Positions 14,958 to 17,106 of a stretch of DNA of 20,418 bases are shown here, one piece after another. Made by a program: the position numbers and the translations under genes. Location of the stretch: UHGV virus genome UHGV-0101751. One strand, given 5' to 3'. Source of the stretch: a virus. A model generated the notes under the pieces. That model saw only the letters and a list, made by a program, of their open reading frames with translations. It was not told where the DNA came from and searched no databases. The first letter of the stretch is position 1; each line of letters begins with the position of its first letter.

Positions 14958-16280
14958 ATGGAAAAACTGATCGCCCTAAAGCACAAGCTGGATGCTATTA
15001 AAACGATGGGAACCAACGCCAAGAAAGAGGCGCTGGCCAATCTGGATGAATTTGAACAGAGCATGGTTTCGCTAATGCTCAATCCATTCATTCGATTCGG
15101 TGTGAAGAAGTACAAAGTGGCCGAGCCACTCGATACTTCCGTACCCAGCGACCAGAAGGTAGTAGATCTGCTGGAGAAGCTGGCAGCGCGCGAACTGACC
15201 GGGAACATCGCTATTGCTGCTGTCGAATCACTCGTTGCCTCGATGTGCGCTGACGGGCAGGACGTGTTTCGTCGCTTCCTGCTGAAAGATCCGAAAGCCG
15301 GTGTCGGCATCAGCCTGTGCAACAAGGTGTTCGAAAACCCAATTCCGAAGTTTGAGGTACAGCTGGCGTCTCCGTACAAGGAGAAAGGCGACAAATACCC
15401 ATTTAAACCAAATCCCAAGGCCAAGTGGCCAATGATCGGCAGCCTCAAACTCGATGGTCTCCGGGTTATCTGCGAAGTCATCGTGGACGAGGGTGAGGTC
15501 AATTTCCTGACGCGCACCGGCAATCCGATTACGTCACTCGATCACCTTAAACCAGCCATGCTGGAGCGGGGCAGACTCTCCGGCTTCAATCACATCTTCT
15601 TCGATGGAGAGGGCACTGCAGGTACATTCAACCAGTCAGTGTCGGCGCTTCGTAAGAAGAACGTGAAAGCCATTGGTGCCGTTTACCACATTTTCGATTT
15701 CTTCTTACCGGAGTGGCGTGCTCAAGCAAAAAGCAAAGAGTACCTGAAGACCGGTATGAAGCTGAAAGAGCGCCTGGCTATGCTGGTGGCGTTGTTCCGC
15801 AACACTTGCGTGGAAGATTATGCGCAAGATATCCACCTTCATCCGTTCTACATCATCCATAGCCACGAAGATTTCATCGAACGTTTCATGAAGCGACTGG
15901 ACGAGAATGAAGAGGGAGAGATGGGCAAAGATCCGGATTCAGTTTACGAGTTCAAACGTACCCGCAGCTGGTGGAAGCTGAAAGACGAGGATTCAGAAGA
16001 CGGTGAAATCATCGACTTCGAGCCTGGCGATCCGGATTCTGGATTTGCGCATACGCTAGGCAAGATAGTGATTCGTCTGGAGAACGGCGTCATCGTTCGT
16101 GCCAGCGGTATCAAGCATAAATACCTGGATGAAATCTGGAACAATCAGGAGAAGTATCGTGGACGCATCGTTGAGGTTCACTGCCATGAGAAAACGCCAG
16201 ATGGTAGCTTGCGTCATCCACGTCTGAAGTGGCCTAAATGTCTTCGAGATACCGAAGATCGTATTGGAGATAAAGAATGA
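14958..16280 (+). CDS. ATP-dependent DNA ligase (440 aa)
   Basis: Adenylation motif I KLDGLR, motif III FFDGEG, motif IV EGEMGK and motif V WWKLK in the expected order; GGAGG Shine-Dalgarno. Confidence 0.85.
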   Translation: MEKLIALKHKLDAIKTMGTNAKKEALANLDEFEQSMVSLMLNPFIRFGVKKYKVAEPLDTSVPSDQKVVDLLEKLAARELTGNIAIAAVESLVASMCADGQDVFRRFLLKDPKAGVGISLCNKVFENPIPKFEVQLASPYKEKGDKYPFKPNPKAKWPMIGSLKLDGLRVICEVIVDEGEVNFLTRTGNPITSLDHLKPAMLERGRLSGFNHIFFDGEGTAGTFNQSVSALRKKNVKAIGAVYHIFDFFLPEWRAQAKSKEYLKTGMKLKERLAMLVALFRNTCVEDYAQDIHLHPFYIIHSHEDFIERFMKRLDENEEGEMGKDPDSVYEFKRTRSWWKLKDEDSEDGEIIDFEPGDPDSGFAHTLGKIVIRLENGVIVRASGIKHKYLDEIWNNQEKYRGRIVEVHCHEKTPDGSLRHPRLKWPKCLRDTEDRIGDKE

Positions 16281-16456
16281 TGCTCGGCTGGATGTTTGTA
16301 TTTTTAGTCGTCGGCATTGTTATCGGAAGTCTGGTTATGTCCAGCTGTATCCACGATTACGTAAAAGCCGGTGTCATGCAAAGGCGAGGTCGTATTTATC
16401 GCATAGTAGATATCACGGACACACTGAAGGAGATTAAGGATGATCATGTTAAGTAA
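16277..16456 (+). CDS. Small single-pass membrane protein (59 aa), not in the supplied ORF track
   Basis: ATG overlaps the ligase stop. Translation MMLGWMFVFLVVGIVIGSLVMSSCIHDYVKAGVMQRRGRIYRIVDITDTLKEIKDDHVK was read by hand. Confidence 0.4.
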   Translation: MMLGWMFVFLVVGIVIGSLVMSSCIHDYVKAGVMQRRGRIYRIVDITDTLKEIKDDHVK

Positions 16457-16652
16457 ACGAGAGAAGGAAACCCTGCGTGAAATTAGCAAGTGGAAGGAGT
16501 TCTATGCCAACTGGAAGCCGAAGACCAGAGCCAAACTGGAGCGCATGAATCTTGTCGCCAACGTTTCTCCAAAGGGATGTATTGAGAACTATCAACTGAC
16601 TGAAAAAGGTTATTTGTTGTTGCAGCAATTGACTGAGGCGGGGGCGCACTGA
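16440..16652 (+). CDS. Hypothetical small soluble protein (70 aa)
   Basis: Overlaps the end of the previous small gene and is followed by an ATGA-type overlap with the next; charged, helix-rich. Confidence 0.4.
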   Translation: MIMLSKREKETLREISKWKEFYANWKPKTRAKLERMNLVANVSPKGCIENYQLTEKGYLLLQQLTEAGAH

Positions 16653-16804
16653 TGATTCCATACATCATTTTATCTTTTACTGGTGGCGTGGGCCTCGGCC
16701 TCGCAATCTGCCGCGCCCTGGTCCAGCAGGAACTGCAAACCAAAACACTTCGTGTCGGTAAGCGTGTGTATCGGGTTGTTCACGAGACGGGAGTGCGAAA
16801 ATGA
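16652..16804 (+). CDS. Small single-pass membrane protein (50 aa), paralog of 16277-16456
   Basis: Translated by hand as MIPYIILSFTGGVGLGLAICRALVQQELQTKTLRVGKRVYRVVHETGVRK. It shares transmembrane helix plus R-x-G-K/R-x-Y-R-x-V tail with the 16277 product. Confidence 0.4.
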   Translation: MIPYIILSFTGGVGLGLAICRALVQQELQTKTLRVGKRVYRVVHETGVRK

Positions 16805-17106
16805 GCAATTTGACTTCCTTCGACTGGTGGCTGGCAACCTACCTTGTGGCGGCCGGCTTCGGATTTGCCTTTTACGTTGGTCAGTTAATCGTAAAGCTAC
16901 TGCTGATCAGATTCGCCAGCCATAAACGCATAGACGACGGTCTGTGGCGTCTGGGGTCCCTGTTAGAGACGCATTACGGCGAACTCAAGGAAAACGAAAC
17001 TATCACTATTCAAGCGAAGCGTTTTACCGCCATCATCACGAGAACTCCGGAACAAAAGGGGAGCCTGATCAAAAAGATAGCAACTAAACGCATCACAGAT
17101 AGATAA
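16801..17106 (+). CDS. Membrane protein (101 aa)
   Basis: N-terminal transmembrane helix (WWLATYLVAAGFGFAFYVGQLIV); start overlaps the previous stop (ATGA). Confidence 0.5.
   Translation: MSNLTSFDWWLATYLVAAGFGFAFYVGQLIVKLLLIRFASHKRIDDGLWRLGSLLETHYGELKENETITIQAKRFTAIITRTPEQKGSLIKKIATKRITDR

Follow-up and report, generated by a model that had tools for sequence, protein, structure and literature searches.

The p16.7 and p1 proteins of phi29, a protein-primed Bacillus phage, are membrane organisers of phage DNA replication. The exclusion proteins Imm of T4, SieA of P22 and gp15 of HK97 are small, membrane-embedded and accessory, and vary between related phages; prophage exclusion genes are normally expressed in the lysogenic state. 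The holin/antiholin pairs S105/S107 of lambda and T/RI of T4 are related pairs of small membrane proteins with charged C-termini.

Closest in sequence to the locus described here are genes of Salmonella phage SSU5 (SSU5_045-048), Yersinia pestis pMT1 and Escherichia phage Cyrano (CYRAN_37-39). These orthologs have the same gene order, overlaps and position behind a ligase gene as those in the window (the whole stretch of 20,418 nucleotides that was analyzed), with a nucleotide identity of 89.7% for SSU5_044-048, and of 89.4% (pMT1) and ~75% (Cyrano) for the cluster region. In Cyrano, ORF1 is intact yet unannotated. No functional difference separates the orthologs from the window, all of them being annotated as hypothetical or of unknown function, and we found no functional work in the literature on the locus, on the name "C-type natriuretic protein" or on the neighbourhood of the pMT1/pHCM2 ligase.

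Layout, surroundings and coding capacity of the cluster

Judged from its sequence, the element represented by the window is an SSU5-like phage-plasmid; the region was found in 760 PLSDB plasmids, mostly of ~100–115 kb and non-mobilizable. Records of SSU5, Cyrano and the plasmids list the gene upstream of the cluster as a DNA ligase, and in relatives its product matches PF01068. The cluster is positioned at the end of a helicase-primase-ligase block and forms the tail of the replication operon of this SSU5-type phage-plasmid (Table 1).

Table 1. Features of the ligase-proximal gene cluster, in positions of the window.
Feature	Position	Strand	Description
ATP-dependent DNA ligase (SSU5_044 homolog)	14958..16280	+	440-aa ORF; upstream coupled gene
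16-nt junction repeat, left copy	16265..16280	+	GGAGATAAAGAATGAT; with Shine-Dalgarno motif, ligase stop and next-gene start
ORF1 (SSU5_045, phrog_4381)	16280..16456	+	58 aa (59 aa from 16277); predicted single-pass membrane protein
16-nt junction repeat, right copy	16428..16443	+	GGAGATTAAGGATGAT; ORF1 3' end / ORF2 start
ORF2 (SSU5_046, phrog_4054)	16440..16652	+	70 aa; predicted soluble minimal winged helix-turn-helix protein
ORF3 (SSU5_047, phrog_6302)	16652..16804	+	50 aa; predicted single-pass membrane protein
ORF4 (SSU5_048, phrog_4507)	16801..17106	+	101 aa; predicted single-pass membrane protein
Palindrome ATAAGTA-N6-TACTTAT	17103..17122	+	overlaps ORF4 stop codon; 10-nt perfect arms

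As the first-pass annotation had described, four very small genes follow the ligase gene, linked stop-to-start and translationally coupled, and the overlaps recur in relatives. ORF1 and ORF2 overlap by 17 nt (in 62 of 64 related loci as well), ORF2 and ORF3 by 1 nt (1 or 4 nt in 68 of 69 loci), and ORF3 and ORF4 by 4 nt (ATGA; 66 of 67 loci). All four ORFs were recovered at the positions given in that annotation; of the two ORF1 starts, 16277 and 16280, the latter is the only one present in all lineages and is also the RefSeq/SSU5 start. The ligase stop codon (TGA, 16278–16280) overlaps the ORF1 ATG by 1 nt with this start, or by 4 nt with the start at 16277. Every start in the cluster is preceded by a GGAG-type Shine-Dalgarno motif, and a scan of the inside of the cluster for promoters and terminators yielded no terminator-like site and no promoter-like sites above the level of shuffled sequence. 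Given the overlapping stops and starts, the cluster proteins are probably made in fixed proportion to each other and to the ligase.

The outcome that would have refuted that annotation, small ORFs lacking conservation or a coding signal, clearly did not occur. All four are intact in 53 of 78 distinct related loci of ~72–100% nucleotide identity, and dN/dS values against diverged relatives lie between 0.07 and 0.20 (ORF1, 0.12; ORF2, 0.09; ORF3, 0.20; ORF4, 0.07). Among the control frames, the two shifted sense frames gave values of 0.7–2.6 and the three antisense frames 0.15–3.1, always higher than the sense frame; the wobble-sharing antisense frame accounts for values of 0.15–0.43, with most control frames at 0.7–3.1. 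Long open antisense frames do exist, but were rejected as genes, since each of the four ORFs has its lowest dN/dS in the sense frame. The substitution pattern confirms the four ORFs as real genes under strong purifying selection.

Each of the four proteins matches a PHROG family over the whole profile (phrog_4381, E = 2e-39; phrog_4054, E = 1.5e-45; phrog_6302, E = 1.3e-32; phrog_4507, E = 1.7e-59), and all four families are listed as function unknown. None of the cluster proteins reached the threshold of a Pfam, NCBIfam or PADLOC model (best PADLOC E = 0.046), and profile searches against PDB sequences gave no significant match. Word-indexed and exhaustive protein searches returned no relatives outside SSU5-like elements, and among 1.84 billion proteins searched exhaustively by profile, 25 representatives only were retrieved. 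The family is confined to SSU5-like elements, which points to an accessory character.

On the 3' side of ORF4, the window contains a Tn3-family transposon, pMT1 the caf1 capsule operon, and SSU5 tRNA and cobalamin genes; the cluster sits exactly at a cargo-insertion hotspot. The palindrome overlapping the ORF4 stop codon is retained in relatives whose coding sequence differs by ~25%. In most loci, a second copy precedes the SSU5_042 homolog, and with up to 2 mismatches the window contains 6 matches versus 0.03 expected. The palindrome delimits the transcription unit on its 3' side and probably serves as operator or promoter of the next unit. No exact match is present in the distant loci L087–L089, with or without ORF2, and L090, which is without ORF2, has one copy ~2.7 kb further downstream. 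An Rfam search of the whole window gave no match.

Predicted products of the four genes

ORF1, ORF3 and ORF4 each contain one N-terminal hydrophobic helix (19-residue Kyte-Doolittle mean of 1.8–2.6), in line with the first-pass view of ORF4 as a small membrane protein. There are no lysines or arginines before the helix and 3–4 within the 15 residues after it. The topology check, by hydropathy and the positive-inside rule, predicts an N-out/C-in orientation with basic cytoplasmic tails for all three, so that just 1–17 N-terminal residues would be periplasmic. A lipoprotein or cleaved signal peptide was rejected, as there is no basic n-region and the cysteine following the helix is not conserved (it is absent from the ORF1 orthologs L070, L065 and P0196, and from the ORF3 orthologs L059 and L071).

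The membrane helix of ORF1 contains a GxxxG motif and that of ORF3 a GxGxG motif, followed by the predicted cytoplasmic tails RRGRIYRIVDIT and RVGKRVYRVVHET, respectively. In ORF4, a glycine-zipper-like helix (G19-x3-A23-x3-G27) is succeeded by a cytoplasmic helix, a β-hairpin (TITIQ / FTAII) and a basic C-terminal helix. The secondary structure of its AF2 model (H6-59, E67-71, E76-80, H86-99) comes from a low-confidence prediction (pLDDT 64). The small-residue motifs (GxxxG, glycine zipper) suggest that the three proteins pack through their helices, and all three may display a short basic β-hairpin at the cytoplasmic face of the membrane. The public name of ORF4, "C-type natriuretic protein," is a misnomer that exists as propagated annotation only: in Pfam and NCBIfam, neither natriuretic peptides nor any other family matches ORF4 at E ≤ 1.

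ORF1 and ORF3 had been read as paralogous single-pass proteins with a common basic tail, and hydropathy, BLASTP, hhalign and decoy-controlled HMM tests agree on this. The two are collinear, with GxxxG in the helix and RxYRxxxxT in the tail in common, and BLASTP aligns them ungapped from end to end (E = 0.002). In hhalign, the ortholog alignments of ORF1 and ORF3 match over 50 ungapped columns (P = 2e-5, versus 0.04–0.6 for other pairs). Segment-shuffled decoys reached the real ORF1/ORF3 HMM score in 4 of 5000 and 24 of 5000 cases (empirical P of ~0.001–0.005). The relatives P0222, P0211, P0202 and the ORF1-like protein of L087 score 22–75 bits against both HMMs, with bridging sequences at 30–41 bits, whereas none of 3000 decoys reached such scores (best ≤20 bits). 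For P0222, the single copy present in L090, the score is 36.6 bits with the ORF1 HMM and 40.9 bits with the ORF3 HMM (best of 3000 decoys ≤19.5). Residues G13, G17, R39, Y41, R42 and T47 are invariant across both families. Together, these results show that ORF1 and ORF3 are true paralogs of one family. The proposed tandem duplication is upheld as to paralogy, but not as to adjacency in the window, where the paralogs are separated because ORF2 lies between them; ORF1-type and ORF3-type genes are adjacent in the distant loci L087 and L089, and L090, the most distant examined, has a single copy resembling both. ORF4 was considered as a third paralog by its hairpin (KRFTAIITRT versus KRVYRVVHET) and rejected, with hhalign P values of 0.04–0.3 and 575 and 737 of 2000 decoys matching the HMM scores.

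ORF2 has no hydrophobic helix by Kyte-Doolittle analysis. Its AF2 model (pLDDT 83) has the elements H-H-β-β-H, and the best Foldseek matches in the PDB are regulators of the MarR/PadR/HxlR type (TM 0.7–0.8, probability 1.0, E of ~0.02–0.1), as are almost all of the top 50 (query-normalised TM 0.56–0.80, probability 0.94–1.0). The wing region carries a typical Y-x-L-T-x-K-G pattern and aligns weakly with PA1607 (E = 0.29, the best PDB sequence match). Against curated winged helix-turn-helix models, there was no Pfam match and a sole NCBIfam match, SSO5209_fam, at 16.7 bits versus a cut-off of 140. With its 70 residues, ORF2 corresponds to the core domain only and lacks the dimerisation helices that MarR proteins have at both termini. 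ORF2, which the first-pass annotation had left uncharacterised, is thus predicted to be a soluble protein with a winged-helix fold and not a membrane protein.

Core and variable members among relatives

An ORF3-type gene and then an ORF4-type gene follow the ligase in the loci L087, L088, L089 and L090 (in L089, the contig ends before reaching the ligase), whereas ORF1 and ORF2 come and go among these loci; a scan of genome contigs with the ligase returned three loci only. The proteins of 81–84 aa at the ORF4 position of distant relatives match ORF4 in hhalign (probability 95.6%, P = 1e-8). By this comparison, the ancient core of the cluster is a pair of bitopic inner-membrane proteins of the ORF3 type (50–56 aa) and ORF4 type (81–101 aa). 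The core pair directly follows the ligase in all relatives examined but one, the Xenorhabdus locus L006, which has the same ligase; here, the cluster is absent and a RelE/ParE toxin-antitoxin pair occupies the slot. In four loci (L079, L080, L078 and L083), a different, 138-aa tail-anchored protein has taken the place of both the ORF3 tail and most of ORF4, and two of these have lost the ORF1 membrane helix too. Within ~3 kb downstream of the cluster, distant relatives carry Acb2/Tad1-hairpin, Tad2-like, crAss001_48 and Lar genes.

ORF1 is precisely deleted in 10 distinct loci, where ORF2 abuts the ligase and the remaining cluster is intact. In the window, the two matching copies of a 16-nt repeat flank the corresponding segment (Table 1), and the junction in loci without ORF1 reads GGAGATAAAGAATGATCGTATTAAG, a precise fusion of both copies. 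By comparison of the loci, ORF1 is a dispensable extra copy of the ORF3-type gene, whose precise loss is possible via the repeat. ORF2 is missing from the clusters of L087, L089 and L090, and is an optional member, inserted between the paralogs.

Expression and possible roles

Published RNA-seq of the Cyrano lysogen reports 5.0–7.6 normalised counts for CYRAN_36-39 and 7–8 for the terminase and capsid genes, versus 96 for the repressor and 150–7000 for the morons (PMC9928086, S1 Table). The toxin-antitoxin genes of Cyrano are 9–60-fold above the local background, and KacT, RelE and HicA are listed as expressed morons (PMC9928086). In this lysogen, transcription of the cluster does not exceed the background seen for the ligase and the structural genes, suggesting that it is expressed in lytic development and not in the plasmid-prophage state. 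These data concern one relative (~75% identical) under non-inducing conditions, and bear on silence in lysogeny rather than on lytic induction. In SSU5, the holin-endolysin-spanin genes (SSU5_026-030) are located at 27.5–29.0 kb and the cluster at 40.9–41.8 kb, in the replication block; the Cor exclusion gene adjoins the tail-fibre genes, and both Cor and the lysis cassette are ~12 kb away from the cluster. The silence in the lysogen, together with the separate holin cassette and Cor, speaks against a part in exclusion from the prophage state, in addiction or in core lysis. Of the roles that the first-pass annotation mentioned for such phage clusters (superinfection exclusion, lysis control and host takeover), the first two are thereby weakened.

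The reading we favor, which we regard as evenly poised, is that of a replication-operon tail with an ORF3/ORF4 core, a duplicate ORF1 and an optional ORF2, encoding a hetero-oligomeric membrane complex of the lytic phase. ORF3, with or without ORF1, might assemble with ORF4 into a small inner-membrane complex, a tentative step suggested by gene linkage, translational coupling and packing motifs. Such a complex would be made alongside the replication proteins during lytic growth, and early in this phase its cytoplasmic hairpins could engage a partner, from the host or the phage, at the membrane. Its role would then be accessory host takeover or protection, rather than essential replication, lysis or plasmid maintenance. 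No homolog or structural match ties the three membrane proteins to a function. The retention of the cluster in degraded, non-phage plasmids (the window itself and pMT1) could hint at a role in the plasmid state, against a lytic-only reading. A bolder and improbable version is that the ORF3/ORF4-type pair, with ORF1 as a diversifying subunit, constitutes a new kind of phage inner-membrane complex of early lytic growth, whose basic cytoplasmic β-hairpins might either tether the replicating genome of the phage-plasmid, with ORF2 as adaptor, or neutralise a membrane-associated defence or entry factor of the host.

Of the alternatives to this lytic-phase complex, superinfection exclusion, in which the membrane proteins would prevent the DNA of a second phage from entering at the inner membrane in the manner of T4 Imm, P22 SieA or HK97 gp15, survives best, but we consider it unlikely. 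In its favor, the phage is temperate and the proteins are small ones of the inner membrane, and the lineage-specific presence of ORF1 and the variable slot would fit an arms-race function. Exclusion exerted from the prophage state is made unlikely by the silence of the cluster in the Cyrano lysogen (one relative, one set of conditions); moreover, SSU5 already has Cor, ORF1 and ORF3 are predicted to have almost no periplasmic exposure, and no homology to known Sie families was found. Exclusion may be exerted during lytic growth only, as by T4 Imm.

Somewhat less probable still is that the cluster tethers or organises the DNA replication of the phage-plasmid at the membrane, much as p16.7 and p1 do for phi29, the basic hairpins (with ORF2 where present) holding replicating DNA or replisome proteins. 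The coupling to the ligase at the end of the helicase-primase-ligase block, the predicted basic cytoplasmic tails and the winged-helix protein embedded in the cluster are consistent with this, but ORF2 is optional, ORF1 is dispensable, tails of 25–35 residues are very small for a DNA-binding domain, and the whole cluster is missing from a distant relative that has the same ligase.

A part in lysis timing, as holin/antiholin-like or pinholin-like proteins, appears quite improbable: the small size, single membrane helix, charged C-termini and paralogous pair do recall holin/antiholin systems, but the cluster sits in the replication operon, PHROG and Pfam show no holin match, and the holin-endolysin-spanin cassette elsewhere in SSU5 makes a core lysis role unlikely. 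Least probable is a plasmid-addiction or abortive-infection module of membrane toxins with ORF2 as DNA-binding antitoxin or regulator, for although the Xenorhabdus slot holds a toxin-antitoxin pair, phage-plasmids carry many such systems and degraded plasmids keep the cluster, the latter does not share the elevated expression of the Cyrano toxin-antitoxin genes, several clusters with intact membrane genes lack ORF2, and PADLOC gave no match.

Phage-plasmids of the SSU5 type, with their cargo of resistance and virulence genes, are frequent among clinical Klebsiella, E. coli, Enterobacter and Salmonella (pHCM2-type plasmids included) and also in Y. pestis (pMT1); the cluster is one conserved accessory module of unknown function within them. 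The analysis establishes which genes are real, that two of them are paralogs, which members are core and which optional, and when they are likely to be expressed, and it corrects a propagated misannotation. The cluster is a solid but ordinary "conserved hypothetical" module that by itself opens no long-standing question, and its proteins of 50–100 aa offer a compact, testable target for studies of small phage membrane proteins.

Compared with the described systems, the cluster proteins are small, membrane-embedded, accessory and variable, as are T4 Imm, P22 SieA and HK97 gp15, but differ from these in the lack of sequence similarity, the silence in the lysogen, the minimal periplasmic exposure and the genomic setting, which is a replication operon and not the vicinity of immunity or tail genes. 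Unlike lambda S105/S107 and T4 T/RI, they are encoded outside the lysis cassette and match no holin family. Neither in sequence nor in fold do they resemble p16.7 or p1 of phi29 (no match to p16.7 or to a dimeric DNA-binding C-terminal domain was found in profile searches of PDB sequences, in Pfam or among the 1.84 billion proteins), and the cytoplasmic parts are much shorter; the architecture, however, is alike, with an N-terminal membrane anchor and a basic cytoplasmic C-terminal part, encoded among early replication genes.

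Gene layout and coding status

The four small ORFs 3′ of the ATP-dependent DNA ligase gene lie where the first-pass annotation had placed them, and the anatomy of the cluster is near certain. The ligase stop codon overlaps the start of ORF1, as ATGA if translation begins at 16277 or as TGATG if it begins at 16280, the annotated start and the only one of the two found in all lineages. Further overlaps of 17 nt (ORF1/ORF2), 1 nt (ORF2/ORF3) and 4 nt (ORF3/ORF4) are retained in nearly all relatives, and a GGAG-like motif precedes every start. Consensus scans found neither terminator-like sites nor an excess of promoter-like sites inside the cluster. 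The simplest reading of these features is that the four genes are translated together as the 3′ part of the ligase transcript.

Relatives were gathered via the ligase (80 loci from IMG/VR plus a small number from genomes), giving 78 distinct downstream sequences. All four ORFs are intact in 53 of these, at 72–100% nucleotide identity. Against diverged relatives, dN/dS (Nei-Gojobori) is 0.12 for ORF1, 0.09 for ORF2, 0.20 for ORF3 and 0.07 for ORF4, compared with 0.7–2.6 in the two shifted sense frames and 0.15–3.1 in the three antisense frames, which exceed the sense frame in every case. The conservation and coding signal on which the first-pass annotation had staked its mini-genes are clearly present. 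Each protein matches a PHROG family of its own over the full length (E between 1e-32 and 1e-59), all four listed as unknown function, and none has a significant match in Pfam, NCBIfam, PADLOC or PDB sequences.

Features of the window in and around the cluster
Feature	Position	Strand	Remark
Terminase and following genes	4367-8021		
tRNA-Lys call (ARAGORN)	9550-9630	minus	anticodon ttt; overlaps start of ParA-like ORF
ParA-like ORF	9562-10227	plus	
Match to Cyrano helicase gene end and 5′ part of primase gene	13714-14506		
Collinearity with SSU5 backbone	14501-17448		
ATP-dependent DNA ligase	14958-16280	plus	
ORF1	16280 (16277)-16456	plus	
ORF2	16440-16652	plus	
ORF3	16652-16804	plus	
ORF4	16801-17106	plus	
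Palindrome ATAAGTA-N6-TACTTAT	17103-17122		overlaps ORF4 stop codon
Inverted repeat	17299-17332		
Inverted repeat	17333-17417		
Tn3-family inverted repeat	about 17448-17486		GGGGTTTGAGGGCCAATGATGTAAAAAACCACGCTAAG; 3′ end of backbone
Tn3-family transposase	17482-20343	minus	

Protein features and the relationship of ORF1 to ORF3

ORF1, ORF3 and ORF4 each contain a single N-terminal hydrophobic helix, in agreement with the earlier description of ORF4 as another small membrane protein. There are no K/R residues before the helix and 3–4 within 15 residues after it, which by the positive-inside rule predicts an N-out/C-in orientation; this would leave only 1–6 residues of ORF1 and ORF3 in the periplasm and 25–35 in the cytoplasm. 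The alternating pattern of their tails (...RRGRIYRIVDIT and ...RVGKRVYRVVHET) suggests a basic β-hairpin. The membrane helix of ORF4 carries a conserved G19-x3-A23-x3-G27 motif, and its low-confidence AF2 model (pLDDT 64) shows a long helix (6–59), a hairpin (67–71 and 76–80) and a basic C-terminal helix. The name ‘C-type natriuretic protein’, widespread for ORF4 homologs in GenBank and RefSeq, is unsupported by any Pfam or NCBIfam model and appears to be a propagated misannotation. ORF2 is non-hydrophobic and modeled as a minimal winged helix (AF2, pLDDT 83), with MarR/PadR/HxlR-type regulators as best PDB matches (TM 0.7–0.8, probability 1.0, modest E-values).

ORF1 and ORF3 had been proposed to be paralogs. 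They align end to end without gaps in BLASTP (E = 0.002, 18% identity), and a comparison of their ortholog alignments by hhalign covers 50 ungapped columns with P = 2e-5, compared with 0.04–0.6 for other ORF pairs. The families are collinear in MAFFT, sharing invariant G13 and G17 (GxxxG, membrane helix) and R39, Y41, R42 and T47 (tail). Under a stricter control, in which helix and tail were shuffled separately, direct cross-family HMM scores were equalled by 4/5000 and 24/5000 decoys. Profile searches recovered intermediates between the families. L090, the most distant of the relatives examined, has a single copy after the ligase (P0222, MMIPYI...RRRVYRVVEIT), which scores 36.6 bits against the ORF1-only and 40.9 bits against the ORF3-only HMM, with the top decoy at ≤19.5 bits (n = 3000). 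In another (L087), ORF1-like and ORF3-like genes are adjacent and both are significant against both HMMs. We regard these intermediates as the decisive evidence that, at the level of sequence, ORF1 and ORF3 are paralogous, as the first-pass annotation held. A relationship of ORF4 to either was not detectable by hhalign or by HMM scores against decoys.

Evolution of the cluster within a phage-plasmid family

The cluster region is 89.7% identical to Salmonella phage SSU5 and about 76% to Escherichia phage Cyrano, and matches 345 (megablast) or 760 (blastn) plasmids, from Klebsiella (310), Escherichia (226), Enterobacter (89), Salmonella (49), Yersinia (43) and others. The matching records, mostly about 100–115 kb and non-mobilizable, identify the window by homology as SSU5-type phage-plasmid backbone. 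In SSU5, counterparts of ORF1–4 (SSU5_045–048) likewise lie directly 3′ of an ATP-dependent DNA ligase (SSU5_044), and the window further encodes a large terminase, a ParA-like protein and a DnaB-like helicase.

Collinearity with SSU5 is limited. At its 5′ end a truncated primase is joined to the middle of an SSU5_043 homolog (about 14501–14506), a junction that deletes SSU5_042 and its upstream palindrome. The terminase block is followed almost at once by ParA, whereas in SSU5 (L093, 4.5–30 kb) capsid, tail and lysis genes fill about 25 kb between the two, so that the element has the look of a decayed phage-plasmid or a cointegrate. The plasmids matching it at 100% identity measure 113–170 kb; the one examined, pEc1675, is typed IncFIA/IncFIB. 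The tRNA-Lys call may be a false positive, since Rfam reported no tRNA there at gathering score.

ORF4 is homologous to 81–84-aa proteins at the same position in four distant relatives (L087–L090; hhalign probability 95.6%, P = 1e-8), from which we take the conserved core to be a pair of genes, the first ORF3-type and the second ORF4-type. Of these four relatives, only L088 has ORF2 in its cluster; the clusters of L087, L089 and L090 lack it. ORF1 is an additional copy, flanked by a 16-nt repeat (GGAGATAAAGAATGAT / GGAGATTAAGGATGAT). Both occurrences of the repeat include a Shine-Dalgarno motif and the beginning of the gene that follows, and the left one spans the ligase stop codon as well. 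Ten distinct loci lack ORF1 through an exact excision between the repeats, which leaves ORF2 abutting the ligase. In L078, L079, L080 and L083 an unrelated 138-aa tail-anchored protein has jointly replaced the tail of ORF3 and most of ORF4, and two of these loci have also lost the ORF1 membrane helix. The replacement (L079 4846–5262, L083 4789–5205), a sub-lineage trait, carries its hydrophobic anchor at the C-terminus and matches nothing significantly in Pfam. In a distant SSU5-like locus of Xenorhabdus hominickii (L006, ligase 55% identical) a RelE/ParE-type pair occupies the slot; the putative 87-aa RelE/ParE-like and 124-aa HTH ORFs (4478–5188) were identified by eye. In L012 the ligase (3001–4320) is 99% identical to that of the window and the cluster (from 4309), which lacks ORF1, only about 75%, pointing to recombination at the ligase/cluster junction. 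Chimeric proteins (P0097, S. Typhi, 71 aa; P0036; P0095) join the ORF2 C-terminal half to a crAss001_48-related (PF21825) segment, the ORF4 N-terminal half to a Phage_gp49_66 domain, and an ORF2 N-terminal part to a stretch for which a PF01725 hit is precomputed. These chimeras suggest that in some plasmids deletions have fused the cluster to accessory genes lying 3′ of it.

The palindrome at the end of ORF4 is more conserved across relatives than coding sequence. With ≤2 mismatches, 6 matches occur in the window (0.03 expected), the weaker ones at 3568, 7134, 11531, 11538 and 11656, and L001 carries copies at 1309–1328 and 4904–4923. In most loci a second copy lies just 5′ of the SSU5_042 homolog, so that palindromes bracket the 042-043-ligase-ORF1-4 block. 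A conserved promoter-like TTTACT-17-TAAGAT and a conserved block (TTTGTTTTCGTTGAGACGCGACTGTTTGAAC) follow 3′, and the palindrome probably serves as an operator/promoter that recurs in this family. Of the two inverted repeats before the transposon, one has perfect 11-nt arms 12 nt apart, the other 23-nt arms (91% complementary) 39 nt apart. In Y. pestis pMT1 (L094, NZ_CP033694.1) the four genes are intact (2503–3329, 89.4% identity) and the F1 capsule locus (caf1R, caf1M; 3844–5829) starts about 500 bp 3′ of ORF4, where the window has a Tn3-family transposon and SSU5 tRNA and cobalamin genes. With such different cargo, the site looks like an insertion hotspot.

Expression and possible function

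The sole expression data come from a transcriptome published for E. coli LF82 carrying Cyrano, in LB overnight culture (PMC9928086, S1 Table). The normalized count of the ligase is 5.9; the cluster orthologs CYRAN_37–39, at 6.4, 5.0 and 7.6, are likewise at the level of terminase and capsid genes (about 7–8), and counts reach 96 for the repressor, 151 for CYRAN_40 and 7084 for CYRAN_43 (PMC9928086). As the cluster is also absent from that paper's list of lysogeny-expressed genes, it is silent in the plasmid-prophage state of Cyrano; presumably, lytic development activates it together with the replication genes.

We propose that ORF3, with or without ORF1, and ORF4 would form a small hetero-oligomeric complex in the inner membrane. 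Produced early in lytic growth, it would act at the cytoplasmic membrane face as an accessory host-takeover or protection device. We infer this because the core pair is always linked and overlapping, with packing motifs in the membrane helices, near-zero predicted periplasmic exposure and predicted basic cytoplasmic hairpins, and because the cluster is coupled to the ligase, silent in lysogeny, restricted to one phage-plasmid lineage and located in a variable slot. Complex formation has roughly an even chance of being correct; the functional class is more tentative. In the distant relatives, Acb2/Tad1 hairpin, Tad2-like, crAss001_48-related and Lar genes within about 3 kb 3′ of the cluster make an anti-defence neighbourhood plausible, which is no proof for the cluster itself.

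Among other readings, exclusion exerted during lytic growth is unlikely, and exclusion in the prophage state is, with addiction and core lysis, most strongly opposed by the expression data and the gene context. A replication tether resembling phi29 p16.7 is less likely still. A role in lysis timing is improbable; the holin-endolysin-spanin cassette of SSU5, and its Cor exclusion gene, lie about 12 kb from the cluster. An addiction or abortive-infection toxin is the least probable, toxin-antitoxin genes being on the list of lysogeny-expressed genes (PMC9928086) from which the cluster is absent.

A literature search found no functional study of these genes, which are already present in hundreds of records as hypothetical proteins and grouped in PHROGs. 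To these records we add proof of coding and of ORF1/ORF3 paralogy, a division into core and optional genes, a junction repeat that accounts for how ORF1 is gained and lost, the predicted winged-helix nature of ORF2 and the expression argument. The cluster is well supported as an accessory module of small membrane proteins conserved in a phage-plasmid family, in itself an ordinary finding.
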